Assembly (NCBI GenBank): GCA_964414295.1 | Contig: CAYPVU010000010.1 | Span: forward strand, 6,937 to 70,936 | Direction: 5' to 3' | Source: an uncultured Candidatus Saccharibacteria bacterium | GTDB taxonomy: Bacteria; Patescibacteriota; Dojkabacteria; J137 | Length of the DNA: 64,000 bases | Shown here: piece after piece, positions 19,669-52,019 of the stretch | Numbering within the stretch: the first letter of the stretch is position 1 | Layout of the letters: every line of letters begins with the position of its first letter | Notes under the pieces: generated by a model | Told to the model about the DNA's origin: nothing | Seen by the model: only the letters and a program-made list of their open reading frames with translations | Databases searched by the model: none | Translations under genes and position numbers: made by a program

Positions 19669-20316
19669 TTAAATCTTTATAACATTTGCTATCCTATTAG
19701 GTGCTTTTCCTATATTTCTCATCCCTTGTCCTACAGGATAGTAAGAAGGATAAACTTTAAACCCTTTTTCTTTTATCTTTAAATTCTCGTATTCATCTTC
19801 TAAGTAATTAGATACCTTGATTGGTTTATTAAGCAGTATGGAAGATACTTGTCCTCCAAATGTAATAATTTTCTTAGGGTTTATTGTATAAATTTCATCT
19901 AGTGTTTGATTTAAATAATCTTTAAATACTGAATTAGATAAATGGCTAGCATCTGCTTGCGTGCATTTTGCTAGATTTGTAATATAAATACTATTATTGC
20001 TAATGTAACTGTATAAGCTTAGTGCAAAATTGCTATCCCATTCATTAGGTTTTAAGTTAAGTATTTGGGAAGTTATTTGAATATCTATTAGGTTTAACTT
20101 GTTAAGAAGTTTCCAAATATTTTTAGTTCCTAGCCAGGGGGCTCTTAATCCTTTCCATTCTAGGTCCGAAGAAATATTTCTTGCGGTTGGATTCATAAAA
20201 ATGAGCATTAATTCCGGATTCTTTATACAGCCCGCTCCGTATATGGCGTGTAATGATTTACTTCCGTGCTTTAACTGTAGTTCATCTAATAAAGAAAAAT
20301 GTGCTGTTAGTTGCAT
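19669..20316 (-). CDS. Uracil-DNA-glycosylase-superfamily protein (tentative)
   Basis: Motif A-like LIFMNPTA (compare GxNPG of SMUG/MUG) and C-terminal YPSYYPVGQGMRN (compare HPSPxN); low confidence. Confidence 0.35.
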   Translation of the reverse strand: MQLTAHFSLLDELQLKHGSKSLHAIYGAGCIKNPELMLIFMNPTARNISSDLEWKGLRAPWLGTKNIWKLLNKLNLIDIQITSQILNLKPNEWDSNFALSLYSYISNNSIYITNLAKCTQADASHLSNSVFKDYLNQTLDEIYTINPKKIITFGGQVSSILLNKPIKVSNYLEDEYENLKIKEKGFKVYPSYYPVGQGMRNIGKAPNRIANVIKI

Positions 20317-20500: not shown

Positions 20501-20827
20501 TTAAATCCTTTTTCTAAAAGCCTTTAGCAATTCTTGAGAACTATCCTTTAATAATTCTAATTGCTTTATTATTTCTTTGCTAGCGTAAGCTATGTCTTGA
20601 ACTTTATCTTTATATTCTCTGCTTTTTGTATATCTATTCAAATTCTCACTGGCTTCTGAATATTCCTTCTCTATTTCTTTAGCAAATCTACCTGCTTTGT
20701 TTGAAAAGTCATTTGTAGCTGTTTTTAATTTCTTTTGATTTTCTTCGTCAGAAAGCAGAGTAGCTGCCCCTGCAGATAATGCAGCAATTGTTCCTAGTAT
20801 TAGTGTGGCTTTTAATAAATTCTTCAT
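20501..20827 (-). CDS. Small secreted protein (about 108 aa), divergent from lexA
   Basis: Start moved to the internal Met (MKNLLKATLILGTIAALSAGAA signal peptide). The longer 172-aa ORF would read through the lexA promoter. Helical, Lys/Glu rich. Confidence 0.45.
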   Translation of the reverse strand: MKNLLKATLILGTIAALSAGAATLLSDEENQKKLKTATNDFSNKAGRFAKEIEKEYSEASENLNRYTKSREYKDKVQDIAYASKEIIKQLELLKDSSQELLKAFRKRI

Positions 20828-20899
20828 AATGATTATTTTACTAGTGTTACTAAAGAATCTCAATAAATATAAATTTTTTAAAAAAGGATTTGACAAATG

Positions 20900-20950
20900 T
20901 TGGTATACCACGTATACCATATTAATACTTATATTTAACTTGGTATACCA
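20900..20950 (+). promoter_or_regulatory. Candidate LexA operator pair (TTGGTATACCA) overlapping the lexA promoter and start codon
   Basis: The perfect 10-bp palindrome TGGTATACCA occurs at 20901-20910, followed by a tandem GTATACCA, and again at 20941-20950, where it ends in the lexA ATG. A TTGACA -35 lies at 20890. Confidence 0.45.
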
Positions 20951-21585
20951 TGTTAACTCAAAAACAACAAAATGTTTTAAATACAATTCAATCTTACATC
21001 CAAGAGAACGATCAACCACCTACCTTGGCAGAACTAAGTGAGATGCTTGGTATTAAAACTAAAAGAGGAGTAGTAAAGCATTTAGATGCGCTTGAGAAAA
21101 AGGGCTATCTATATAGAACCAGTAAGCCAAGAGGTATAGTTTTAACCTTTGGTGAAAGCTTGTATTCGGATACCCTTAGTGTACCAGTTGTAGGATTTGC
21201 AAATGCAGGTAGACCTTTAGTGTTTGCTGAAGAAGATATTATTGGTTCTATAAAAATAGATAGGGATCTTATTAAAAACAGTAGAAAAACCTTTGCTTTA
21301 GTAGTAAAAGGAGATTCAATGAATCTAAGGCAAGTAAATAAAGTTCCAATTCTAGATAGAAATTATGTAATAGTAGAAAAAGATACCTCAATAGAAGATG
21401 GAGATGTAGTTTTGGCGGTAGTAGATAATGCAGCAACTATAAAAACTTTTAAAAGAAGTCAAAATTCAGTGATTTTATATCCCGAAAGTAGTAATCCTGT
21501 CCACACTCCAATATATTTAAAGGACGATGTAGCGGGGTTCATTAACGGTAAAGTGATCGCGGTTTTAGAGAACCCAATGTTTTAA
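20950..21585 (+). CDS. lexA: SOS repressor LexA
   Basis: N-terminal wHTH, Ala-Gly cleavage region (VGFANAGRP), and S24 peptidase Ser (VVKGDSMN) and Lys (AATIKTFKR) boxes. Confidence 0.9.
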   Translation: MLTQKQQNVLNTIQSYIQENDQPPTLAELSEMLGIKTKRGVVKHLDALEKKGYLYRTSKPRGIVLTFGESLYSDTLSVPVVGFANAGRPLVFAEEDIIGSIKIDRDLIKNSRKTFALVVKGDSMNLRQVNKVPILDRNYVIVEKDTSIEDGDVVLAVVDNAATIKTFKRSQNSVILYPESSNPVHTPIYLKDDVAGFINGKVIAVLENPMF

Positions 21586-21838
21586 CTGATATTTTACATT
21601 TCTGTTACGTTAGTATTAATCTTCTTATTTATTATAAAAATAGGTAAGAATTAATAAAATTAATTTAATTTTTATTGTAAATAGTATGACAAATGTAGAC
21701 TACAAAAGAGCAGTTGAACTAAGAAAAAAGACAATAAGAGAGCATTTGGCAGTATTTGCAGCTAGGATTATTGGCGTTCAATACATCTAATAGTTACATT
21801 CAAAGTTAATCAAAGTGCTTTTTTAATTATTTTTTCTA

Positions 21839-21866
21839 GGGCCCGAATATTCGGGCCTTTTTTTTA
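21839..21866 (+). terminator. Rho-independent terminator downstream of lexA
   Basis: gggcccgaa-ta-ttcgggcc followed by a T9 run. Confidence 0.65.
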
Positions 21867-22319
21867 TTTCTTAAATAAACCTCTTACTTTTGATCTTTTT
21901 ACAGATAATACAACAATTAGATTAATTGTAATAAAAGCACATAAAGATAAAAATGGAATTGTTATAAAGCCTAAGTATGCAATATCTACAACATCACATG
22001 GTTTTGCAGCGGAAGTACAAGCTGCAAATTCTTTAAATAATCCAAATGTTTGCATTAAATAATGATAGGTAGCGAATAGTAATCCAGGTAAAGATAAAGA
22101 AAGTATTAGTAATTTTTGTAGTCTAATTTTAAAAACTAAAGATGCAGTGGTTAAAAAGAATAATGGGTACATAAATATTCTTTGCCACCAACATAAATAA
22201 CAAGGTTCTATTAATAAAACATCACTAAAATATAGACTTCCTAATACAGAAGAAAAGGAAATCATAAAAATTAAAAGAGTGTAGTTATTTTCTAAAAAGT
22301 TTTGGACTTTATTAATCAT
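21864..22319 (-). CDS. Disulfide bond formation protein B (DsbB/BdbC family)
   Basis: Four TM helices; first loop EPCYLCWWQRI matches the BdbC PCxLCWxQRI signature; second Cys pair CTSAAKPC. Confidence 0.65.
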   Translation of the reverse strand: MINKVQNFLENNYTLLIFMISFSSVLGSLYFSDVLLIEPCYLCWWQRIFMYPLFFLTTASLVFKIRLQKLLILSLSLPGLLFATYHYLMQTFGLFKEFAACTSAAKPCDVVDIAYLGFITIPFLSLCAFITINLIVVLSVKRSKVRGLFKK

Positions 22320-24984: not shown

Positions 24985-25441
24985 GGGGATGCTTATTAGA
25001 CAGTAAACCTGCATATTAAAAATCAAGCCGGAATTTAGATTATTTGTTCCGTAAAAATAAGTAATCACCTTGAATAAAGGTAACTTGACTAAACGTCAAT
25101 CAAATTAAAAATACTTTCTCTAATGCAGTTGCAAACGTAAAGGCAGCTTTTGCTCCTTCTTACGCTTTAGCATTTGCTTAATTTAGAGTAAGTAGTTAAT
25201 CGAAAAAAAGAGTAGATTAACCACTTATTAGTTCTTTTTTCAGTGGGAATTATTAAGTGTCACACAGCTGAAATGCAGAATTTATTTTTAGTTTATGAAT
25301 AAATTTCAAGATTAAATAAACTGGAGTATGTAATTTTTGTAAGTTTTAATCGACATGCTTTTAATAAAAAACTTAATCTAAGCTTGTAAAAATTTTTAAT
25401 GTGAGATTTGTTGGACAGGGGATAACCCCTCATCTCCACCA
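24985..25441 (+). ncRNA. ssrA: tmRNA (SsrA), with tag ORF encoding about ANVKAAFAPSYALAFA
   Basis: 5' GGGGATG pairs with 3' CATCTCC-ACCA, with G3.U70 (the Ala identity pair). Resume region GCAAACGTAAAG...TACGCTTTAGCATTTGCTTAA parallels the canonical GCAAACGACGAAAACTACGCTTTAGCAGCTTAA. An intrinsic terminator follows the CCA. Length (about 457 nt) and the T-arm are atypical. Confidence 0.6.
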
Positions 25442-40177: not shown

Positions 40178-40990
40178 ATGAATAAAAAGAAAAAATTAGT
40201 TTATTTACTTCTTTTGCTTAATCTCTTTTTTGGTCAATTTGCGGTAGTACATGCACAATTACAGACCTTTGATTTCTCCGCCAATAATCCAGAAAGCTAC
40301 CAATGTTTTAATAAAGAAACAGGAGAGATATTAGATATACCCGTTGAGCCAACTCCGGACGAATTTGGTAATTACTATTGTAATAATGGAGGAACTAGAG
40401 TTATAGCTCAATTAAAACCTCCTACACTCCAGCAATTAGAAGTTTGGTTTGTTAGAATTTTATACGCAATTTGGGGTCTTGTGGCTTCTTTATCCTTTCT
40501 ATTCTTAGTTAAGTTAGGATACGAATACACAATATCTAGAGGGGACCCTACAAAGATAACAGAAGTAAGAAAAAGAATTGTAAGTTATTTAATAGGTTTT
40601 GCTCTTGTATTTTTAGCTGTCCCAATATTAACTACAGTATTTAGATTGTTAGGCATTAATACTAATGCGCAGTGTTATAACGTTAATATGCCTGGCTTTA
40701 GATTCTTTTATGCTACATTATGTACCGACCCTAAGGGAGTGATCGCATCTAAATTTGCCTCTAATCCGTGTCAGGCATTTATTGATGGAGAAGCGCCAGA
40801 AGGTATTACTTGTAGCGGAACTCCTTATGCGGGTGGTGCACCAGTTACATGTGGTGTAGTTGGTTTAGCTTCAATTTCATTAACATGCCAAGTTCAAGAA
40901 GGAGATAGCCCAGGTGCATCAACGTGGTGTAGAACATCAACTTTATTTGGCTTTTGCTCATCATCGTGTAACCCATCGGGTTGTCCATAA
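40178..40990 (+). CDS. Pilin-like secreted protein, paralogue 6, with extended Cys-rich C-terminal domain
   Basis: Signal peptide ...VHA|QL; helix-loop ISRGDPTKITEVRK-helix; about 120-aa C-terminal tail with 12 Cys. Confidence 0.45.
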   Translation: MNKKKKLVYLLLLLNLFFGQFAVVHAQLQTFDFSANNPESYQCFNKETGEILDIPVEPTPDEFGNYYCNNGGTRVIAQLKPPTLQQLEVWFVRILYAIWGLVASLSFLFLVKLGYEYTISRGDPTKITEVRKRIVSYLIGFALVFLAVPILTTVFRLLGINTNAQCYNVNMPGFRFFYATLCTDPKGVIASKFASNPCQAFIDGEAPEGITCSGTPYAGGAPVTCGVVGLASISLTCQVQEGDSPGASTWCRTSTLFGFCSSSCNPSGCP

Positions 40991-42489
40991 TGATTCAATT
41001 TATTAGTTTAAAAAAAAATAACGTTCAAATTAATTTATTGGAAAGTTCAATAGATTTGAACACGCTTGAAGATCTTGTTAAATTACTTAATAGGGATTCT
41101 AGTATTGATATTGAATTAGCATTTAAAATTAATAAAGCTAATAGATCAGAGCAGTTTTTAATAAATAAGACTTCAATTTTAAAAGAGGGAAATGTAATAG
41201 AAGAGAATTCTTTTTTTAATCTAGTAAAAGCTGAACTAGGAATTATTTTAGATGCTAATATTCTAAAAAGTAGATTCCTAGAAGCAAGTAGTTTAAATGA
41301 TCTAGAAGCTTCTTTCAATTCTTTAAACTTAACAACTGATCCAGAGTTAGAAACTAAGATAAACTCTAAAACTCAACAACAAACAGAATTAAAAACTCAA
41401 CTTCTTAATACTTTAGATGAAGATCAAAAGAGTAAATTTACTAGATTAGAAGAGGTTACTCAGAGGATTGCATCTATTCAGGTTCAGGTAGATTTTTACC
41501 AAAATGAAAAGAAAATAAAAGAAGAACTTAATAGTAATATAAAAAAATATAAGATTGATAAAGAAAATATCAATCAAATGCTTCAATCCGTAGAGTTGTT
41601 AATAGAAAATAAAGAATCGTTAAATTTAAAACTAAAGTCCTTTGAGCAATTTAGTGATTCTTACGATAAAGTTAAGGAATTAAAAGCTCAAAAAATCAAC
41701 TATCTGAACTCTAAATTATCTATAAGACATTCACCTGGATCCTCAATTTTAGAAGACGATATTAAGGAAGCTGAAAATAAATCTAGTTCACTAAATTTAT
41801 TCTTAGTAATTCCAATTATAAATTTATTGATAACATTTGTAGTTTTTTTAGTTACTTATAATGCAGCGGTACTTTTAATCGGAATCCTTTTTACTGTATT
41901 CTTAATGATTATTTATATTGTATCTAGATTTTTTAAAGATTCATTAGAAGATGTTGAAGAATTAAATAATAAAGCATTTTCTCCCCAAGCGGATTCTAAA
42001 GAAGGTGTTGCAGAAGTAGAAGACCCAAATACTCAATTATTTATAAATAGTGCATGGGCTAAAGCAATAAAAGATGAATTAGAAGTTGTAGATGAAAATA
42101 TTACAAAAAGCTTAAATGGGAAGTCTTATGAGGCTCTAAAGCAGGATCTTACAAATTTAGATTTAAATATAGAAAAAGAAAATAATAAATTGGAAGAGTT
42201 AACTCAAAAAGCAATAACCTCAGATGAGTACTATAAAAAAAGAAGAGAAATAGATATTTTAAAAATCGAAAAAGAGAATCTGGAATATGGTTTAAAGTTA
42301 GAGCCTACCATAAATAATAAAATACAAGATTTATCAAAAGAAATAGAAAATTTAAAGCTATTAACAGAAATGGGACAGAAAACTAATGCTTTAGTGCCCG
42401 TTTTTATCAAATTTAGTGAGAATTTGCCTCAAATTGAGCAAATTAAGCAAATAATTAGTGCACAGGTAATTCTCGTAGGGTTAAATTAA
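40981..42489 (+). CDS. Coiled-coil membrane protein (central TM hairpin)
   Basis: Long heptad-rich N- and C-terminal regions flank an approximately 45-aa hydrophobic segment LFLVIPIINLLITFVVFLVTYNAAVLLIGILFTVFLMIIYIV; overlaps the upstream gene by 10 nt. Confidence 0.45.
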   Translation: MSIMIQFISLKKNNVQINLLESSIDLNTLEDLVKLLNRDSSIDIELAFKINKANRSEQFLINKTSILKEGNVIEENSFFNLVKAELGIILDANILKSRFLEASSLNDLEASFNSLNLTTDPELETKINSKTQQQTELKTQLLNTLDEDQKSKFTRLEEVTQRIASIQVQVDFYQNEKKIKEELNSNIKKYKIDKENINQMLQSVELLIENKESLNLKLKSFEQFSDSYDKVKELKAQKINYLNSKLSIRHSPGSSILEDDIKEAENKSSSLNLFLVIPIINLLITFVVFLVTYNAAVLLIGILFTVFLMIIYIVSRFFKDSLEDVEELNNKAFSPQADSKEGVAEVEDPNTQLFINSAWAKAIKDELEVVDENITKSLNGKSYEALKQDLTNLDLNIEKENNKLEELTQKAITSDEYYKKRREIDILKIEKENLEYGLKLEPTINNKIQDLSKEIENLKLLTEMGQKTNALVPVFIKFSENLPQIEQIKQIISAQVILVGLN

Positions 42490-42504
42490 AGTTATAATCT
42501 AGTT

Positions 42505-43290
42505 ATGTCTAATAATACCTCAGGTAATCAGAATAATGGAGAAAATAACGGATCTAATAATTCGTTTAGCTACCCACAGCCTGTTTATCCTGGAAGTATG
42601 GCAAACCCATTTAACGGGTATTACTATTATCCTTCTAATATGCAACAACCACAAAATAATAGAGATTACATATTAAAGATGAGAGAGCAGGAGGCTAATA
42701 AAATTGTTCCAGAAAAAAAAGGAATGCCTTGGTCTTCAATTATTTTAAAGCCTAATTTAGTATTCGAAACACAAAATCCTAACGAAAAGGTTTTTGTTTT
42801 AGTAAGGGCACATTGGTTAACTAATCTAGGATGGTTTTTAAGAAATCTTTTCTTAGCAATTCTTCCATTTATAGTATTCTCTTTACTAGAATATTTCGGA
42901 ATTCGAATTGATTTAACCTTTATAGGCAGTAAAGCTTCTACAATCTTAGGACTGCTTTATTATTCTTTTATATTTACAAGTATAGTAAGTAACTTTATTG
43001 ACTGGTATTTTGACCCATTTATAGTTACTGATATTCGTATAATGGATTATGACTATAAGCCTTATTCAAATTATAAAGTTTCCGAAGTTAACTTACAGGA
43101 TATTCAAGAAGTAAAGGAAAGATCTGCAGGTTTAATTGGAGATATCTTTAATTTTGGAAACGTTTATATCTATAGTGCCAGCGATAGAACAGAAATGATT
43201 TGTTCTAACGTGCCTTCACCTACAAAAGTTAGAGATATTATTATCGATTTATCTACCGTAGCTAAAACATATAAATATGACAATCTCTGA
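42505..43290 (+). CDS. Membrane protein with Asn/Gln-rich N-terminus, TM pair and bacterial PH-like (bPH_2/YdbS-like) C-domain (tentative)
   Basis: Two TM helices followed by a region DIRIMDYDYKPYSNYKVSEVNLQDIQEVKERSAGLIGDIFNFGNVYIY resembling bPH_2 proteins. Confidence 0.4.
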   Translation: MSNNTSGNQNNGENNGSNNSFSYPQPVYPGSMANPFNGYYYYPSNMQQPQNNRDYILKMREQEANKIVPEKKGMPWSSIILKPNLVFETQNPNEKVFVLVRAHWLTNLGWFLRNLFLAILPFIVFSLLEYFGIRIDLTFIGSKASTILGLLYYSFIFTSIVSNFIDWYFDPFIVTDIRIMDYDYKPYSNYKVSEVNLQDIQEVKERSAGLIGDIFNFGNVYIYSASDRTEMICSNVPSPTKVRDIIIDLSTVAKTYKYDNL

Positions 43291-43498
43291 ACTATTAACA
43301 CCTGAAATAATTGAGTTTATTAAAGTTATTGCAATTATTATTGGATTAGTACATTTATTAGCTGGATTTATATTAGTATTCCAGACTTTTAGAATGAATC
43401 GAATTATAAAAACCCCGAATGCTCCTATTTTTAGTATTATTGCAATTGTCTACATTGCTGTATTAATGGCTACGTTAATTTTAATCTTGAGTGCATAG
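43277..43498 (+). CDS. Small two-TM membrane protein
   Basis: 73 aa, two hydrophobic helices; overlaps the upstream gene by 14 nt. Confidence 0.35.
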   Translation: MTISELLTPEIIEFIKVIAIIIGLVHLLAGFILVFQTFRMNRIIKTPNAPIFSIIAIVYIAVLMATLILILSA

Positions 43499-43554
43499 AA
43501 TACATTTTCTTTTTTGATATACTGTTTTAAGGATAGTTAATCTTTTTAAAGTAT

Positions 43555-46053
43555 ATGCATTTAAGAGCAGATTTTATTGTAGGAACTCAAACCTCTAATT
43601 CATGGTCAGGAGTATATGGTTTTAAACCAGAAGACTCTATTGAGCCGCTAGAACTTTTTGCCATTATTAAGTTGGAATCCCTTACCAGCGAAGACAGATT
43701 AGAGGCTCTGGCTAAAATGTTTTTAGATGAACTCCAAAACTATCTATTTAACGAAGGTAAAGAGGGAAACTATATAATTAGACTAGAAAATGCTGTTTGG
43801 AAAATGAAATCCAAAATGGAGTTGCTTTTATCTTCAGATGAAAGATATTCCCAAAATGGATTAGATATAGAAATTGCTCTTACTTTATTCGATAAGAATT
43901 TTCTTTACTTAGGTGTAATAGGCGAAAGCAAGATCTTTATTAAAAGAGAGGATAAATTTGTAGAGCTTTCTCAAGGTTTATCTGATGCAAACATGATGGG
44001 CTTCTTAAAAACAGGAAGTCTAGAACTGGAAGAAGGGGATAGACTGGTTTTAGCAACCAATACAGCTGCAGAACAAGGGCTGGGAAGTATAGAGGCTTCT
44101 GTTAATAATTTAAATATTCAAGCATTGTCATCATTAACTAGTGGAAAAGGTACTGCAGTACTACTTTTAGCAGATGAAAAAGATAATTGGACAGAAAAAG
44201 AAATTATAGATGAAGAGTTTATTCCAGAAACTCCTATTAATTTAGAAACTGAAGATAATCAACATCAAGAATCTGCCAAATTTATACCTATTCAAGAAGA
44301 AGATTTTGAAGATAATACCGAATATATTGCTACAGAGTCAAACGAAGAAGAGTTAAACCTACAGCCATTAGAAGATAAAATTATTCCCGTAGAGAGGGAG
44401 GAAGTTGTTTTAAATACTAATATAACAGAATTGAATGAAAATGAATTACCAAAAGGAAAGGTCTTATTAAATTCAGTAGGGAGTAAATTATCTTCAAGTA
44501 TGAGGGTAGGGGCAAGTAAACTTACTGATTTACGCACGAGAATGAAAAGAGTTCCCCTAGAAAACGCAACTGAATTTAATAATGACATAGATAATTCAGT
44601 AGAGATTAAAGAATCAAAAGTAGGTTCAGTACTCACTAAAACTGCACCGATTCTAAATTCTATACAATCCTTTGTGCAAAACAAGTTAATGCCTTTCTTT
44701 AAAAAAAGTAATAAAACATATATTAAATATTTAAGAGATTTTGTTTTACTTGTAGTTGGATTAATTAAAAAATTCGTGGCATGGTTTAAAAAAGAATTTA
44801 TTGGTGGAGGAGTTGATGATAGAAGGAATATTTTTGAAAAAGCAAAAAAAAGAAAAAGAAATAGAATTATTTTAATTGTACTTGTAGTTATTTTGGCAAT
44901 ATTAATTGTATCAGCGATTAATAATAGAAATGCACAATTAAGGGAACAGGAAAGAATCGATACTGCTAGATCAAATGTAGATCAATATAAATCTGAACTA
45001 GACAATTTAGTAAGACAAGCAAATAGTAATCTTAATGATACTCAGAAAAATACTGTAATAGATCAGTTAGATAAACTAAACACTAGTTTAGAAACACAAA
45101 AAAGACAGGATTTATTTATAGATGAAATTGCAAATTATCAAACAACCATTACCAAAACAAAAGATAAAGTTTTAGGTGTTGTTGGCTTTACGGACCCACA
45201 AATGGTTGCAGATATTGGGAAAATCTATTCAGATGCAAATTTAATAGATATGGTTTATACGGATGGTAATTTATATGTGGGAGATAAGGCAAGAAATGCA
45301 ATATATCAAGTAGGAACAAATATAAATTCTCAGGTATCTCAATTTGCAACTGGTTTAAATGCCCCATATACAATGACAGTAAATGCGGCAGGAGACATTA
45401 TTTTCTTTGATTCAGATAGTACAAGTGCTGTAGGTAGAATATTTGTGGGGGAAAATGGCAGAATTGAAAGATATCCTGGATTAGCTCCTGCAGTTATTGG
45501 CACTGTTACTAAATCAGCAGTTTTTAGTGGTAATGATGCCTTATATGAATTACATCAAAATCATCAGCAGATATATAAAAGAGAAAAAGCAGGTGAAGAT
45601 TATACTAGTGGAGGAGCAGTATATAACACACAAAATCCACCAAACTGGAAAACAGACCCAGAGTTGGGAAGTGCAATAGATATAGATATCCCTTACGAGA
45701 TTTATGTTTTGATAAGAGGTAAAGGATTAAGAAGATATTTAGCTGGGGAAGCAAATACAATCTCTAAAGAAACCTTTGTAAATACTTCTCAAAAAGATAT
45801 TGACTCATTAGCATCTGCCACTGCATTTGACATAGATGGTAAACTATTGGCAGTTGCTGATCCAACAAACAGAAGAGTACTTTTATTCAGAATTGAAGAT
45901 AATGATGCTAAAACTTTGGCATACGAGAAATCTTATGTATATAGAGGTAATGACTCTACAACCTTTAAAAATATTAAAGAAATAGTTGTGAATGAATCAA
46001 GTAAGTATATCTTTGTATTGGATGGCACAGGAATAATAAGATTAGATATTTAA
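43555..46053 (+). CDS. Large bitopic membrane protein with cytoplasmic N-domain and C-terminal beta-propeller/NHL-like repeat region
   Basis: TM NRIILIVLVVILAILIVSAI near residue 440. C-terminal repeats (DGNLYVGDKARNAIYQV; GDIIFFDSDSTSAVGRIFV; LAVADPTNRRVLLF) suggest a beta-propeller. Confidence 0.45.
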   Translation: MHLRADFIVGTQTSNSWSGVYGFKPEDSIEPLELFAIIKLESLTSEDRLEALAKMFLDELQNYLFNEGKEGNYIIRLENAVWKMKSKMELLLSSDERYSQNGLDIEIALTLFDKNFLYLGVIGESKIFIKREDKFVELSQGLSDANMMGFLKTGSLELEEGDRLVLATNTAAEQGLGSIEASVNNLNIQALSSLTSGKGTAVLLLADEKDNWTEKEIIDEEFIPETPINLETEDNQHQESAKFIPIQEEDFEDNTEYIATESNEEELNLQPLEDKIIPVEREEVVLNTNITELNENELPKGKVLLNSVGSKLSSSMRVGASKLTDLRTRMKRVPLENATEFNNDIDNSVEIKESKVGSVLTKTAPILNSIQSFVQNKLMPFFKKSNKTYIKYLRDFVLLVVGLIKKFVAWFKKEFIGGGVDDRRNIFEKAKKRKRNRIILIVLVVILAILIVSAINNRNAQLREQERIDTARSNVDQYKSELDNLVRQANSNLNDTQKNTVIDQLDKLNTSLETQKRQDLFIDEIANYQTTITKTKDKVLGVVGFTDPQMVADIGKIYSDANLIDMVYTDGNLYVGDKARNAIYQVGTNINSQVSQFATGLNAPYTMTVNAAGDIIFFDSDSTSAVGRIFVGENGRIERYPGLAPAVIGTVTKSAVFSGNDALYELHQNHQQIYKREKAGEDYTSGGAVYNTQNPPNWKTDPELGSAIDIDIPYEIYVLIRGKGLRRYLAGEANTISKETFVNTSQKDIDSLASATAFDIDGKLLAVADPTNRRVLLFRIEDNDAKTLAYEKSYVYRGNDSTTFKNIKEIVVNESSKYIFVLDGTGIIRLDI

Positions 46054-46055
46054 AC

Positions 46056-46511
46056 ATGAAAGTCCTAGCCAGTAATAAAAAGGCCTATTTTGATTTTGAT
46101 ATACTTGAAAATATTGTAGCAGGTATTAGTCTAGTTGGATGGGAAGTAAAATCAATTAAAGCAGGCAAAATAAGTTTAAATGGTGCTTACATTAAAGTAT
46201 TAAATGGAGAGATGTACTTAGAGAATGCAGTTGTGCCTTCGCTTAAATACACTCCTAACGTTTCTCAGCATCAAGAAAGCAGAAAAAGGAAGTTGTTGCT
46301 TACTAAAAGACAAATCTCTGTATTAACTGCAAATGCTAAACAACCCGGAAATACAATTGTCCCCTTAGAAGTAGTAGAAAATGATTCCGGATTAATAAAA
46401 GTAAATGTAGCATTAGTAAAGGGTAGAAAAAAGTTTGATAAAAGAGAGAAGTTAAAAGAAAAAGATATTCAGAAACGAATTAATTTTGAAAGAAAAAAGT
46501 ATAATATTTAA
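46056..46511 (+). CDS. smpB: SsrA-binding protein SmpB
   Basis: VAGISLVGWEVKSIKAGKISLNGAYI...RKRKLLLTKRQI, the SmpB signature; 151 aa. Confidence 0.85.
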   Translation: MKVLASNKKAYFDFDILENIVAGISLVGWEVKSIKAGKISLNGAYIKVLNGEMYLENAVVPSLKYTPNVSQHQESRKRKLLLTKRQISVLTANAKQPGNTIVPLEVVENDSGLIKVNVALVKGRKKFDKREKLKEKDIQKRINFERKKYNI

Positions 46512-46513
46512 AT

Positions 46514-47065
46514 ATGAGCAACTCCAATCAGACTTTAAAACAAAATAATGAAGAAAATTTAAAATTAGTAGAAAGATTTGGATTTAAATTTTTTGGATAT
46601 GATGAGAATTCTTTTACTCTTGTAGTTGCTCCAAATGGTCAAATAGTACCCTTGAATGTGGCGTATGAGTTTGTACAAACTCAAATTGCTAATTCTCAAA
46701 CATTTTCTGGAGGCGGAATGGAAGGAATGCCAAATATGCCAACTATGCCCACACTCCCCGAAGCTAAAGTTGAATCAAAGGTTGAGTCAGCTATAGAAAA
46801 TAGGATAGAGAAAAAACAAGAGAGTACAAATGATAATAATCAAACCCAGCAAACAGTATCTGCAACTCCTAAACAGGAGCCTGCTAAAAAAACTGAATTA
46901 GAATCTCCTTATGGAGATGGATTTAAAACTCCTATTAATCCTGCTTATATCGAAAAGGCTTTAGACTATATAAAAAGAAATAGCAAAAAATCATTAAGCT
47001 CTACTTCTAAATGGCTTTCTGTTCAATTTGAGAAATTTATTTCCGAACAGAATTCTGGCAAATAA
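46514..47065 (+). CDS. Hypothetical protein (Met/Pro-rich linker)
   Basis: No signal peptide or TM helix; no recognisable motif. Confidence 0.35.
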   Translation: MSNSNQTLKQNNEENLKLVERFGFKFFGYDENSFTLVVAPNGQIVPLNVAYEFVQTQIANSQTFSGGGMEGMPNMPTMPTLPEAKVESKVESAIENRIEKKQESTNDNNQTQQTVSATPKQEPAKKTELESPYGDGFKTPINPAYIEKALDYIKRNSKKSLSSTSKWLSVQFEKFISEQNSGK

Positions 47066-47124
47066 TTCTTACTTAACTGCAGAGGGAAAATAATCTATAA
47101 TAAAGCGAATTATATATTTAATAA

Positions 47125-49584
47125 ATGTTTTCAGGACAGAATATTACAAATTTCAACACTACAGTTGATACTTCATGGGTTCAAGGAGCCGTAATCTTTT
47201 TACTTGTTCTACTTGTAGTATTAGTTGTCTTGGGCATAGTAATTGCCAAGTTTTTACAGAACTTTAAACAAGAAGTTTTAAAGAAAAAGGGGTTAAATCT
47301 TGTTTTTTATGAAGTAAAACTCCCCAAATCTAATGATGTAGAAATTAGAGCTGCAGAGCAAATGTTCACTGGTCTTATTGGTATAGGAGAGGAATTAAAA
47401 GGGTTTAAAAAGTTTGTAGGGGCAAGAAAGTTTGTAAGCTTTGAGATAGTTGCATTTAAAGAATCAATTAAGTTTTATGTTGTTTGTCCAAAAAGTATTT
47501 CTAATATTGTAGATAGGCAAATTAATGGAACCTACCCATTAGCAGAAATTAATCAGGTAAAGGAATATAATCTATTTCCAGATGGAGCATTTACTTCTTA
47601 TACATCTCTTAAGTTAGAAAAAGATACTAAAATTCCTTTTCAAACATATGAGGAACTTGCCGTAGATTCAATTGGAACAATAACTGATATTTTTAGTAAA
47701 CTACAAGAAAACGAAGGTGCTGTCTTTCAGGTTGTAATAACACCTGCCGGATCTGGTTGGAGAAATGAAGCTAAGTCTTTAGTTAAAAAGCTTAGAGAAC
47801 CAGCTAAAGAAGGAGAGACTGCTTCTAAGCCTAAATTTAATGATGATACTATTTCTTTAATTGATAAAAAAGCAGATAAATCTGGATTTTATACAGATAT
47901 AAGAATTGTATGTGTTTCCGATACAAAATTTGGTGCTGATTCTAATTTAGCCAATATTTTAAGTGTATTTGATCAATTCTTAAAAGAAGCAGGGAATCGA
48001 TTTAAGAAAACAAAAGAATCTGATTTAGGAAATTTTGCAGAAGACGTTATTTATAGAATTCCTAGGCTTTCAATGGTCTTAAATACTGCTGAACTGGCAA
48101 CTATTTTCCATTTCCCAAATAAAAATGTAACTTCTCCTCATATTAAATGGATGCTTGCTAAAAAGGCCCCGGCTCCAGATTTTGTAGCAAGTAATTACCA
48201 ACAAGACTATATGTATATTGGTAGAAACTCATTTAGAGGTCAATTTAAAGAAATATTCATAAAACCTGAAGATAGATTAAGGCATATGTATGTAATAGGT
48301 CAGACTGGTACTGGTAAATCGGGTTTTATGTCTGGAATGATGATAAGAGATATGAAACTAGGCCATGGTTGTGGTTATATTGACCCCCACGGCACAGATG
48401 CGGAGAAAATATTACAACAGGTTCCTCCTGAAAGAGTTGAAGATGTAATAATTTTTGATCCATCTGATTTAGAAAGACCTGTAGGATTGAACATGCTAGA
48501 GTTTTCAAATCCTGCACAACGTACACTTGTTACAAACGAAATGTTAAATATATTTGATACTTTGTATAACCTTAAAACAACCGGAGGTCCAATGTTTGAA
48601 CAGTACTTTAGGTATGCAATTATGCTTTTAACAGATGATGTAGAATCAGGCTCTACATTAATGGAGATCCCTAAGATCTTTGCAGATGACGGTTATAGAA
48701 ACTATAAACTTTCAAAATGTACCGACCAGGAAGTTATAGACTTCTGGAGAAAACAGGCAGAACAAGCAACAGGCGATGTGGGGTTAAAAAATGTAACCCC
48801 ATATGTTGTTTCTAAACTTGCACCATTTTTAACTAATCAATATGTAAGACCTATTATTGCACAGCAAACTTCTACAATAAATTTTAGAAAGATAATGGAT
48901 GAAGGCAAGATCCTGATTGTAAAACTTACTAAAGGTAGAATTGGAGATTTAAACGCTGCACTACTAGGTATGATTATTATTGGTAAGTTACTAATTGCTG
49001 CTTTAGAAAGAGAAGGTACAGATGAAAAATCAAGAAATCCATTTTATCTGTACATTGATGAGTTTCAAAACTATCTTACAGATGGAATTATGACAATTTT
49101 AGCTGAAGCTAGAAAGTACAGACTTTCCTTAACAATGGGACATCAATTCATAGGTCAGTTAACAAGAGAAGGTGGAAATACAAAAATTAGGGATGCTGTA
49201 TTTGGTAATGTAGGAAACAAAGCTATTTTTAGAGTAGGTGAGGATGATGCTGCATTCTTAAAGAAGGTTATTGGTGAAGGTTTTGAAGAACTTGATTTAC
49301 AGCAAATAGAAAACTTTAATTTTTATCTAAAAATGTTAGCAGACGGTAAGCCAACTCCAGCTTTTACAGCAAGATCTTTTTATGGTGATTCTAAATACGA
49401 TATGATAGGTTCATCAAGCTCTCAGATTGCCGATGTAGCTAAACAAATTTCTAGACTTCGTTATGGTAAAGATAGAAACATAATTGAAAATGAGATTAAA
49501 TTAAGAGGTACATTTATTAAAGAAAAAACAGAGGAAGAAAAGAAACCTGCTTCCTTATTTGGTGGCGGATTAGGCGGATTCTAG
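47125..49584 (+). CDS. Membrane-anchored P-loop ATPase of the FtsK/HerA/VirB4 (DUF87-like) superfamily
   Basis: N-terminal TM VIFLLVLLVVLVVLGIVIA. Walker A HMYVIGQTGTGKSGF...GYIDPHG, Walker B FYLYIDEFQNY, and the downstream ARKYRLSLTMGHQFIGQL block typical of VirB4/TraC/HerA-like ATPases. Confidence 0.65.
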   Translation: MFSGQNITNFNTTVDTSWVQGAVIFLLVLLVVLVVLGIVIAKFLQNFKQEVLKKKGLNLVFYEVKLPKSNDVEIRAAEQMFTGLIGIGEELKGFKKFVGARKFVSFEIVAFKESIKFYVVCPKSISNIVDRQINGTYPLAEINQVKEYNLFPDGAFTSYTSLKLEKDTKIPFQTYEELAVDSIGTITDIFSKLQENEGAVFQVVITPAGSGWRNEAKSLVKKLREPAKEGETASKPKFNDDTISLIDKKADKSGFYTDIRIVCVSDTKFGADSNLANILSVFDQFLKEAGNRFKKTKESDLGNFAEDVIYRIPRLSMVLNTAELATIFHFPNKNVTSPHIKWMLAKKAPAPDFVASNYQQDYMYIGRNSFRGQFKEIFIKPEDRLRHMYVIGQTGTGKSGFMSGMMIRDMKLGHGCGYIDPHGTDAEKILQQVPPERVEDVIIFDPSDLERPVGLNMLEFSNPAQRTLVTNEMLNIFDTLYNLKTTGGPMFEQYFRYAIMLLTDDVESGSTLMEIPKIFADDGYRNYKLSKCTDQEVIDFWRKQAEQATGDVGLKNVTPYVVSKLAPFLTNQYVRPIIAQQTSTINFRKIMDEGKILIVKLTKGRIGDLNAALLGMIIIGKLLIAALEREGTDEKSRNPFYLYIDEFQNYLTDGIMTILAEARKYRLSLTMGHQFIGQLTREGGNTKIRDAVFGNVGNKAIFRVGEDDAAFLKKVIGEGFEELDLQQIENFNFYLKMLADGKPTPAFTARSFYGDSKYDMIGSSSSQIADVAKQISRLRYGKDRNIIENEIKLRGTFIKEKTEEEKKPASLFGGGLGGF

Positions 49585-50481: not shown

Positions 50482-51153
50482 ATGCTTAAACTAAATTCAT
50501 TATTAAAATTGTCCTTAATCTTGTTTGCAAGCTTATTAATTCCAAGCTTTTTATCACTATTTAAAATTTCTTTTGATGAATATATTGCAGCACAAAAGGG
50601 GCAGGGTAAGGTTCAGGGAGCAAGTGTAGTAAATGTTCGTACTGTAAATGGAAGAACACCTGACGGGGAAGAACAGTCTGTTATAGTTAATGTTAATCTG
50701 CCACGAATTGGGTCTATTAGAAATCTAAGTGAAAGGCCCTTCGCTTTCCCAAATGCAAAAGCTAATACTGAATCTCCTTTAGTTAATCTCCAAGCACCAT
50801 TATCCTACCCTGATGGCCCAAATAATCCTGTTTATATAATTTCTAAGGATGGTGGAAGAGGAGGGGATTCCTTTTTATTTGCATACGGCGGACTAAAAGG
50901 TAATTATCTATCTTTCTACAACGGAAACAATTACGATATGAATGATGTTAGGATTCAAATAAAATGGTCTAATGGAAACATTGAATATACAAGTATTTAT
51001 TCTACACAGCAAATTCAAAGAAAATTAGGATTTTACGTTGCCGTAAATAACTCTTCTGAGGCTAGTATCCCGTATAATCCCCAAATGAGGATTAAGGAAT
51101 TTTTAGTAAGATTTAAGGATAATGCGGGAATGGAGTATATTGCAGAATTTTAA
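50482..51153 (+). CDS. Hypothetical secreted protein
   Basis: Signal peptide; Gly/Asn-rich; no motif. Confidence 0.4.
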   Translation: MLKLNSLLKLSLILFASLLIPSFLSLFKISFDEYIAAQKGQGKVQGASVVNVRTVNGRTPDGEEQSVIVNVNLPRIGSIRNLSERPFAFPNAKANTESPLVNLQAPLSYPDGPNNPVYIISKDGGRGGDSFLFAYGGLKGNYLSFYNGNNYDMNDVRIQIKWSNGNIEYTSIYSTQQIQRKLGFYVAVNNSSEASIPYNPQMRIKEFLVRFKDNAGMEYIAEF

Positions 51154-52019
51154 AGCTCTACAAGCTTATTTTCAGGCCTTGCTTTATATTTCTTACTTAA
51201 TAATTCTAAATATCTTGTAGTTGTAGCAATGTTTTTATGCCCAACAATTTCTGCAAGAGTAGTTAAAGATATACCATTGCTTAGTTGATTTACTATAAAT
51301 GTATTTCTAAGATCATTTACGCAGGCATTTCTCACCTTTGCTTTGATTATTATTCTATCGATTGAGCCTCTAATATTCCTTACTTCTATACTTCTACCTG
51401 TTTTAGTACAGAATAGAGGGGAATTGGGCTTTTTAGCAAACTTGTGCTGTGCTAGATATGCTTTTAGTTCAGTCAATAACTTCCCATTAATTGGAACCTT
51501 TCTTTCATCATTGCTGCCAAATTGTTCTATTTGTACATAAGGTCTAGAACCGCTTAAATGTAGATCCTTTATTTTTATTCTTGAAAGCTCCCCAATTCTT
51601 ACACCGGTTTGAAGAAGAAATTCAATAATTACAAATATTTTATAATTATCTCTACTACATTCTTTTAGTGCTAAATATTCAGGTCTAGATAAAAATCGTT
51701 GTTTCTTTATTCTAAACTTAGGATGAGAAATATTTAAAGTAGGATTTGATTTAATATACTTTTTTTCCTCTAAAAACTTATAGAAAGTTCTTATGCTGTT
51801 CAGTTTTCTAGAAATTGTCTTTGCAGAAAGAGTATAGGTATTTTGTAAAAAGTTTAAACCATGTTTTATATCTGCTTCACTAAAATCTACTAAAGATTTA
51901 TTTAGATTGCTTTCTGCTAACTGACTTAAGTCATTTTTATAAGCTATTAGCGTTGACTTTGCTTTCCCCCTTCTTTTAAGGTAATTTATAAAGTCATTTA
52001 TTAATTTTTCAGTTTCCAT
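51150..52019 (-). CDS. Tyrosine recombinase (XerC/XerD-like)
   Basis: N-terminal core-binding helix pattern (KSTLIAYKNDLSQL); catalytic R...H-x-x-R...Y blocks (GVRIGELSRIK; LRNTFIVNQL; VGHKNIATTTRYLEL); 289 aa. Confidence 0.8.
   Translation of the reverse strand: METEKLINDFINYLKRRGKAKSTLIAYKNDLSQLAESNLNKSLVDFSEADIKHGLNFLQNTYTLSAKTISRKLNSIRTFYKFLEEKKYIKSNPTLNISHPKFRIKKQRFLSRPEYLALKECSRDNYKIFVIIEFLLQTGVRIGELSRIKIKDLHLSGSRPYVQIEQFGSNDERKVPINGKLLTELKAYLAQHKFAKKPNSPLFCTKTGRSIEVRNIRGSIDRIIIKAKVRNACVNDLRNTFIVNQLSNGISLTTLAEIVGHKNIATTTRYLELLSKKYKARPENKLVEL

Follow-up and report, generated by a model that had tools for sequence, protein, structure and literature searches.

The window, i.e., the whole 64-kb stretch of DNA that was analysed (~31% G+C, with an rRNA operon), carries upstream of a lexA gene a short palindrome whose copies reach into the start codon. 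This locus raises the question of whether these copies are the sites by which LexA controls its own synthesis, and perhaps that of the gene transcribed in the opposite direction, or whether they serve another factor, other signals, or nothing at all. The original prediction had proposed a LexA box of a new type, duplicated at the lexA promoter and shared with a divergent gene for a secreted protein.

The lexA gene and its promoter region

The features on which the argument relies are as follows.

20501-20827, minus strand: divergent gene of 108 aa, with an N-terminal membrane anchor or signal segment and a coiled-coil
20828-20949: intergenic region of 122 bp between the divergent 108-aa ORF and lexA, holding the -35 hexamer and the units
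20835-20863, minus strand: predicted promoter of the 108-aa gene, TTGAGA-17-TAAAAT, from a promoter scan, overlapping no unit
20891-20896, plus strand: TTGACA, -35 hexamer of the lexA promoter, read from the sequence
20901-20910: putative operator unit 1, TGGTATACCA, with its GTATAC core at 20903-20908; it lies in the spacer of the -35 and the -10 and belongs to the RGTATACY type seen across the class
20911-20920: putative operator unit 2, CGTATACCAT, core at 20912-20917, 9 bp after unit 1
20941-20950: putative operator unit 3, TGGTATACCA, its last base being the A of the lexA ATG
20950-21585, plus strand: lexA, encoding 211 aa, with a wHTH whose recognition helix is TKRGVVKHL, the Ala-Gly cleavage site ANAGRP, and the dyad Ser123/Lys165
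21686-21790, plus strand: small ORF of 34 aa (MTNVDYKRAVELRKKTIREHLAVFAARIIGVQYI) between lexA and the terminator, conserved in three other Dojkabacteria loci (L001, L002, and L011)
21838-21867, plus strand: intrinsic terminator with a 9-bp G+C stem and a T run, closing the lexA-small ORF unit

The identification of the downstream gene as lexA was borne out by profile searches, the 211-aa ORF matching the TIGR00498 lexA equivalog at 150.3 bits for a cutoff of 110.95 (NCBIfam) and containing the Pfam domains LexA_DNA_bind (PF01726, 59.6 bits) and Peptidase_S24 (PF00717, 70.8 bits), i.e., a wHTH and an S24 domain. The protein aligns over its full length to the Escherichia coli LexA structures 7b5g, 1jhh, and 3jso, with its cleavage site and dyad falling on A84-G85, S119, and K156 of E. 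coli LexA, and among 23 relatives the columns ANAG-P, GDSM, and K165 show no or almost no variation. Judged on these residues and domains, the ORF is a genuine LexA with its cleavage site and catalytic dyad intact. Its nearest relatives carry the labels Candidatus Dojkabacteria (WS6) or Patescibacteria, and the organism is a patescibacterium of Ca. Dojkabacteria. In the Dojkabacteria genome BOLA01000001.1, LexA is 88% identical to that of the window. The base-contacting positions of the recognition helix read SPNAAEE in E. coli whereas they read TKRGVVK here, and since all of them differ, a different DNA specificity is to be expected.

The perfect 10-bp palindrome TGGTATACCA was found twice within 50 bp (20901-20910 and 20941-20950), as originally described: the first copy lies just after TTGACA (20891-20896) and is extended in tandem by the abutting CGTATACCA at 20911-20919, which corresponds to unit 2, and the second copy ends in the lexA start codon, position 20950 being the A of the ATG. 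These are the only exact copies in the whole 64 kb, for 0.04 to 0.07 copies expected there under Markov models of order 1 to 3. GTATAC hexamers number 13 in the window, and 3 of them are packed into 46 bp at lexA. The total of RGTATACY in the window is 4 for 3.6 expected, i.e., at chance level, so that the anomaly consists in the clustering at the lexA promoter and not in an overall excess. The three units stand between the -35 hexamer and the ATG and overlap the lexA core promoter, which is the layout of an autoregulated gene.

Unit 2 is overlapped by TATACC (20914-20919), the sole hexamer spaced 17 bp from TTGACA and probably a weak -10 of the lexA promoter; the promoter scan omits it since its position 6 is a C, and we infer this -10 from the sequence. 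In most Dojkabacteria, the homologous position is occupied by TATACT. As TATAC[TC] also serves as the -10 hexamer, promoter function could explain part of the conservation of unit 2.

Between lexA and the terminator lies the 34-aa ORF, which is absent from the account of the locus given in the original prediction. Compared to L001, L002, and L011, its substitutions amount to 14 to 18 at third codon positions versus 2 to 8 at first and second positions, and no family match was found for it. An equivalent stem-loop followed by a T run also occurs in these three loci, and the small ORF probably shares its transcript with lexA.

On the opposite strand, the 108-aa ORF is present, and its product has an N-terminal hydrophobic segment, in agreement with the secreted protein first proposed; a YtxH-like Pfam similarity is below threshold, and none is significant. 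Orthologues occupy the same position in L001, L002, and L011; most other Dojkabacteria have another gene there, which encodes a DUF4870 membrane protein. The predicted -10 of the 108-aa gene stops 7 nt short of the ATG, so that its mRNA would be leaderless, and the same TAAAAT-6/7 nt-ATG arrangement is found in L001 and L002. This promoter is separated by ~38 bp from the nearest unit and overlaps none, and LexA control of the 108-aa gene is therefore not indicated; the proposed SOS control of this gene thus finds no support in the geometry. An SOS cell division inhibitor of the YneA/SulA type was considered for the 108-aa protein and rejected, there being no operator over its promoter, no LysM, and no family above threshold.

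Conservation of the units and their relation to the recognition helix

Our comparison covered 80 Dojkabacteria lexA loci from species-representative genomes, with LexA identities of 46 to 88%, and promoters were counted in the 78 loci whose upstream sequence exceeds 100 nt. GTATAC reaches a density of 17.7/kb in the 150 nt upstream of lexA versus 0.56/kb in the other 421 kb of these loci, a 32-fold enrichment. Two copies are present in 31 of the 78 promoters, three in 21, four in 21, five in 1, a single copy in 1, and none in 3. Units numbering 2 to 5 thus occur in 74 of 78 promoters, in relatives whose LexA identity goes as low as 47%, and a single one of the GTATAC-bearing full-length promoters has fewer than two. 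The comparative footprinting called for in the original prediction therefore places the motif upstream of lexA throughout Dojkabacteria.

A position count over 212 sites confined the information content to R-GTATAC-Y, with flanks near background, the outer T and A of the 10-mer TGGTATACCA being weakly conserved. The 10-bp palindrome first taken as the unit is real, but what is conserved is the 8-bp RGTATACY, in arrays of at least two. This 8-bp element would be the functional unit, and across the lineage it behaves like a direct repeat in tandem, with a period of 9 bp, and not like a single 10-bp palindrome. Aligning the window with seven relatives (59 to 88% LexA identity) showed that, in the intergenic region, TTGAC, the three units, and a few scattered columns are invariant and the rest has diverged; the core of unit 1 and the GGTATA of unit 3 are invariant in this alignment.

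In other clades, a unit is located at the lexA ATG or within codons 3 to 5. One clade with its start-proximal unit at lexA codons 3 to 5 (M-D-G-I-L-T) encodes the Ile by ATA in 20 of 20 distinct loci versus a background of 47%; at residue 3, Gly, Ser, or Cys is found, with a codon that is always xGT, and GTATAC is kept in 17 of the 20 loci. The ATA bias together with the retention of xGT reflects selection on the DNA and not on the protein. Spacings between units are clade specific (9, 14, 22, and 36 bp). At +9, only about 16% of units have a partner in which 5 or more of 6 positions match; most units lack a partner at 9 bp, and the idea that every unit has one in tandem at that distance was rejected.

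The GTATAC promoters all pair with a helix of the TKRGVVxHL type, which aligns to SPNAAEEHL of E. coli LexA, a few of them with single conservative substitutions. At locus L075, the helix is TKKGVASHL, and GGTGTAGT-g-GGTGTAGT follows the -35 hexamer without GTATAC. For L243 (P0051), with the helix TKKGVAFHL, the motif was predicted before the promoter was read, and the promoter reads TTGACA-g-GGTGTAGT-g-GGTGTAGT...GTGTAG. GTATAC is likewise absent from L078 (SKRSVTFHL) and L079 (SKRGVVQYL), which have GGTRTA-like tandem repeats instead, and in the relatives with GGTGTAG, this non-palindromic unit is clearly repeated in direct orientation every 9 bp. Finally, the lexA promoters retrieved from more distant Patescibacteria, of the Parcubacteria/Komeilibacteria type, carry TTGAC-GTTCGG-N5-GTTCGG-TATA together with the helix SSTATVHEHI. 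The motif thus shifts together with the LexA helix, over a small number of independent switches, which argues that LexA is its reader.

Sharing of the motif with umuDC and competing readings

Within the 64-kb window, no recA, uvr, dinB, or umu gene is found among the ~45 Pfam-annotated ORFs, no other cluster of units was detected, and no unit lies upstream of polA, ruvX, the UDG-like gene, or the NUDIX gene. Searching the fetched loci by tblastn with approximate fragments of E. coli RecA, UvrA, UvrB, and RuvB gave no matches, and only Y-family polymerases were found. The MAG JAGQLK01 provides two promoters for comparison: that of lexA on contig 98 (L063) reads TTGACA-N5-GTATACC-aa-GTATACT...GGTATACA-actATG, and that of umuD-umuC on contig 58 (L082) reads TTGACA-N5-GGTATACT-a-GGTATACT-N15-AGTATACC-caaATG, or equally TTGACA-gtttG-GTATAC-Tag-GTATAC-T...AA-GTATAC-CcaaATG. 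One promoter-operator cassette is thus present in JAGQLK01 on both lexA and an unlinked canonical SOS operon, umuD-umuC, a distribution to be expected of a LexA box. Moreover, lexA-umuD-umuC operons, in which umuC encodes the Y-family polymerase, stand behind the motif in L077, L081, L084, L229, and L231, some of them with a DNA alkylation repair gene.

Wider scans did not extend this list of targets. A three-unit array scan of metagenomes (GGTATACYNNGTATAYN{12,42}RGTATACY) yielded no identifiable new target among the at least 120 matches listed, which were mostly microsatellites and collagen-like coding repeats, with ~11 Dojkabacteria lexA promoters. Scanning viral contigs for TTGACA followed by tandem units (TTGACA-N-GTATACY-NN-GTATAC) gave 24 matches in ~10 unrelated phage families, high-GC ones included, and neither LexA, UmuD, nor UmuC was found near any of the 24. 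Such matches in unrelated families without SOS genes indicate that the pattern is biased toward sigma-70 promoters and is uninformative for the regulon.

The autoregulatory LexA-box reading, as originally put forward, gains strong support from the conservation across the class, the sharing with an unlinked umuDC, and the co-variation with the recognition helix, and we consider that the three GTATAC-centred units are very probably the operators of the LexA encoded directly downstream. They could instead be bound by another transcription factor that happens to control lexA and umuDC. Regulators of the GntR/HutC type favour GT-N-AC palindromes such as TGGTCTAGACCA, TGGTATACCA may be similar in form to GntR-type operators, and a palindrome of 8 to 10 bp is atypically short for LexA. 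However, the motif changes along with the recognition helix of LexA, it goes with lexA itself and umuDC, the most typical targets of LexA, and lexA is the sole regulator gene that is consistently adjacent, all of which makes a foreign factor very improbable.

A second view would take the units for promoter and translation signals, with TATAC[TC] as the -10, GGT as a weak ribosome-binding site, and the palindrome as incidental. It accounts for the unit that coincides, in most Dojkabacteria, with TATACT at 17 bp from TTGACA or TTGCAA, and for the promoter bias of the viral matches in ~10 unrelated phage families. It is nevertheless very improbable given that promoters have 2 to 5 units, some of which stand upstream of the -35 or in the spacer and others at the ATG or within the coding sequence, that the G and C around TATA are as invariant as TATA itself, that elsewhere between the genes of these loci GTATAC is seldom found, and that unit 2 of the window yields TATACC, a poor -10. 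Lastly, the duplication of TGGTATACCA could be due to chance or to a recent local repeat without function, as the chance-level total of RGTATACY in the window might suggest. Against this stand the two copies of a 10-mer expected 0.04 to 0.07 times, both in one 122-bp intergenic region, and the units conserved in 74 of 78 full-length promoters of relatives refute it, leaving it a negligible probability.

A putative LexA operator type and its place among known systems

We propose a model in which, in the undamaged cell, LexA dimers would occupy the tandem units 1 and 2, filling the spacer and the -10 region and thereby blocking RNA polymerase, and unit 3 on the start codon, at about +25 from the inferred transcription start, would act as a roadblock. 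Upon DNA damage, RecA filaments would trigger LexA self-cleavage at Ala86-Gly87 via Ser123/Lys165, a RecA-stimulated derepression to which the conserved catalytic residues point. Once the operators are vacated, transcription of lexA would set in and run to the terminator at 21838-21867, probably including the 34-aa ORF, until fresh LexA re-establishes repression. In related Dojkabacteria, the motif would control umuDC, either fused behind lexA or provided with its own promoter-operator cassette.

A canonical LexA dimer has two wHTH domains, for which, in E. coli geometry, a palindrome of 8 bp does not offer enough length. For the Dojkabacteria protein, we favour, as a speculation, the binding of one monomer per unit with the dimer bridging two units. 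A more elaborate hypothesis, possible but doubtful in its entirety, would be that Dojkabacteria LexA places each monomer on one self-complementary unit of 6 to 8 bp, that the dimer bridges two units in either orientation at 9, 14, or 22 bp, that units in coding sequences are used as well (codons 3 to 5, and +184 and +216 in one subclade), and that the 34-aa ORF encodes a new SOS-induced small protein. If true, such a modular, monomer-per-unit mode would be a binding mode not described for LexA, and it would explain how the family switches between palindromic and direct-repeat motifs.

The E. coli lexA promoter carries two SOS boxes. The system described here has in common with it the wHTH and S24 domains, the Ala-Gly site, the Ser/Lys dyad, several operators over its own promoter, and, in Dojkabacteria relatives, the umuDC target, whereas the E. 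coli SOS box CTGT-N8-ACAG extends over 16 bp versus an 8-bp palindrome with abutting half-sites here, and one unit is placed here on the start codon. In Bacillus subtilis, lexA and yneA form a divergent pair with a GAAC-N4-GTTC box. The present locus likewise has a small membrane-anchored or secreted protein encoded divergently from lexA, but the 108-aa protein has no LysM, and no operator covers its predicted promoter.

Likeness to motifs built as direct repeats (GTTC-N7-GTTC of Alphaproteobacteria and the Patescibacteria type) is seen in the position of the operator, which begins directly behind the TTGAC of the -35 hexamer and extends into the -10, and in tandem units about one helical turn apart. 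The Parcubacteria type differs by GTTC(GG) with a period of 11 and the helix SSTATVHEHI, where Dojkabacteria have GTATAC with a period of 9, a self-complementary unit, and TKRGVVKHL. The divergent Dojkabacteria-like loci L075 and L243, with their non-palindromic direct repeat, resemble the direct-repeat class. The Bdellovibrio LexA box, TTAC-N3-GTAA, is the shortest palindrome reported (PMC8565304). It is, as here, a short palindromic site, and the junction of units 1 and 2, ATAC-N3-GTAT, has the same 11-bp geometry; yet the sequence is different, and given that most units are without a 9-bp partner in Dojkabacteria, an inverted repeat with N3 does not describe the units in general.

Seventeen LexA motifs have been counted, the known ones including CTGT-N8-ACAG, GAAC-N4-GTTC, GTTC-N7-GTTC, TTAC-N3-GTAA, GGTT-N10-AACC, and Bacteroidetes motifs (PMC8565304), and RGTATACY is unlike every motif listed there. 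The original view that the motif is distinct from the boxes of Proteobacteria, Firmicutes, and Cyanobacteria is therefore upheld. The SOS network of Patescibacteria was reportedly analysed by Sanchez-Osuna et al. in 2017. A passage of a later article cites the Patescibacteria SOS motif of that study as a direct repeat (PMC7739468). The GTTCGG-N5-GTTCGG of the Parcubacteria-type promoters is a plausible candidate for it. Neither a LexA motif of WS6 nor the 2017 Patescibacteria consensus is stated in the literature searched in full text, a body to which the 2017 paper itself does not belong. It is thus plausible that the GTATAC-type LexA motif is new, although it may well have been published before.

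LexA is the textbook case of a conserved network with an ever-changing DNA motif. Our study leaves the general picture of the SOS response unchanged and adds a LexA motif, putative as an operator, for a whole class of uncultured Patescibacteria. The intermediates within the same lineage, from the GTTCGG direct repeat to the GGTGTAG direct repeat and on to the palindromic unit GGTATACC, matched by substitutions in the helix, constitute concrete material on how a repressor may retarget its regulon. The motif permits the prediction of SOS regulons in Dojkabacteria metagenome bins, and it suggests that translesion synthesis (umuDC) is the core of the Dojkabacteria SOS regulon.

Genes flanking lexA in the window and in its relatives

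Two features adjoin lexA in the window, one on each side of the gene:

21686-21790, + strand: conserved short ORF (34 aa) lying between the stop codon of lexA and the terminator
within 20827-20863, - strand: predicted -10 element (TAAAAT) of the divergent 108-aa gene, ending 7 nt before its ATG

The 34-aa ORF is 72 to 82% identical in three relatives (L001, L002, and L011), and the substitutions between the window and these loci fall mainly on third codon positions. A family search with this ORF gave no match, and its product may be a small protein cotranscribed in the SOS response. On the other side of lexA, no Shine-Dalgarno sequence precedes the ATG of the 108-aa gene; this, together with a predicted -10 element only 7 nt from the ATG, suggests that its mRNA is leaderless. 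L001 and L002 share the TAAAAT-to-ATG arrangement.

In most Dojkabacteria loci, the gene divergent from lexA encodes a DUF4870 membrane protein of 106 to 136 aa (PF09685, 31.8 bits), as at the following loci of other genomes:

L029, 225-575: DUF4870 gene, divergent from lexA
L024, 2448-2846: DUF4870 gene, divergent from lexA

At DUF4870 loci, a GTATAC unit (a short palindrome, RGTATACY, predicted to be the LexA operator) sits between this gene and lexA, and a YtxH-like gene of 108 to 116 aa takes the place of the DUF4870 gene in the window's clade.

Elsewhere in the window, a UDG-superfamily gene (19669-20316) lies two genes upstream of lexA, without a unit. The window also holds a tmRNA gene (24985-25441), a type IV secretion-like cluster (40178-49584) with a T4SS pilin (PF18895) and a TrwB-like coupling protein, and a XerC/D-type integrase (51150-52019) adjoining tRNA genes.

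Other elements before and within lexA

Most Dojkabacteria (L012-L069 type loci) conserve an ACTATRRGTAsTTGC block at roughly positions -75 to -60 relative to the start codon of lexA, immediately upstream of the -35 element and overlapping it; the block is kept even in loci without a neighboring GTATAC unit, and is absent from the window's clade. One subclade (L010, L017-L019, L021, L025, L028, and others) carries two extra GTATAC sequences within lexA, at +184 and +216, which may be intragenic operators. There, the RGIH codons read GGTATACA[TC] in 34 of 36 cases. The VY codons read GTATAC in 21 of 25 cases, versus ~9% expected by codon usage. The window lexA has neither sequence, its RGIV codons reading GGTATAG.

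Upstream of Parcubacteria/Komeilibacteria-type lexA (L235, L238, L240, and L242; recognition helix SSTATVHEHI) lies TTGAC-GTTCGG-N5-GTTCGG-TATA, a direct repeat with an 11-bp period like the alphaproteobacterial GTTC-N7-GTTC. At L240, lexA is followed by a DUF6504-like 96-aa ORF and a Y-family polymerase.

Unit-like arrays in phage and metagenome contigs

TTGACA-N4-8-GTATACY-NN-GTATAC promoters occur in about 10 phage families with G+C contents of 30 to 61% (IMG/VR contigs L085-L108), and neither LexA, UmuD, nor UmuC was found near them. Repressors unrelated to LexA could use these sequences as operators, or the sequences could simply be strong promoters with a TATACT -10 element. Nonrepeat arrays of GGTATACC-type units, found in five metagenome contigs (L109, L152, L201, L124, and L173; G+C 34 to 39%), precede small ORFs and an ORF of 587 aa with zinc-finger or primase-like character, and these contigs may represent mobile elements from related bacteria.
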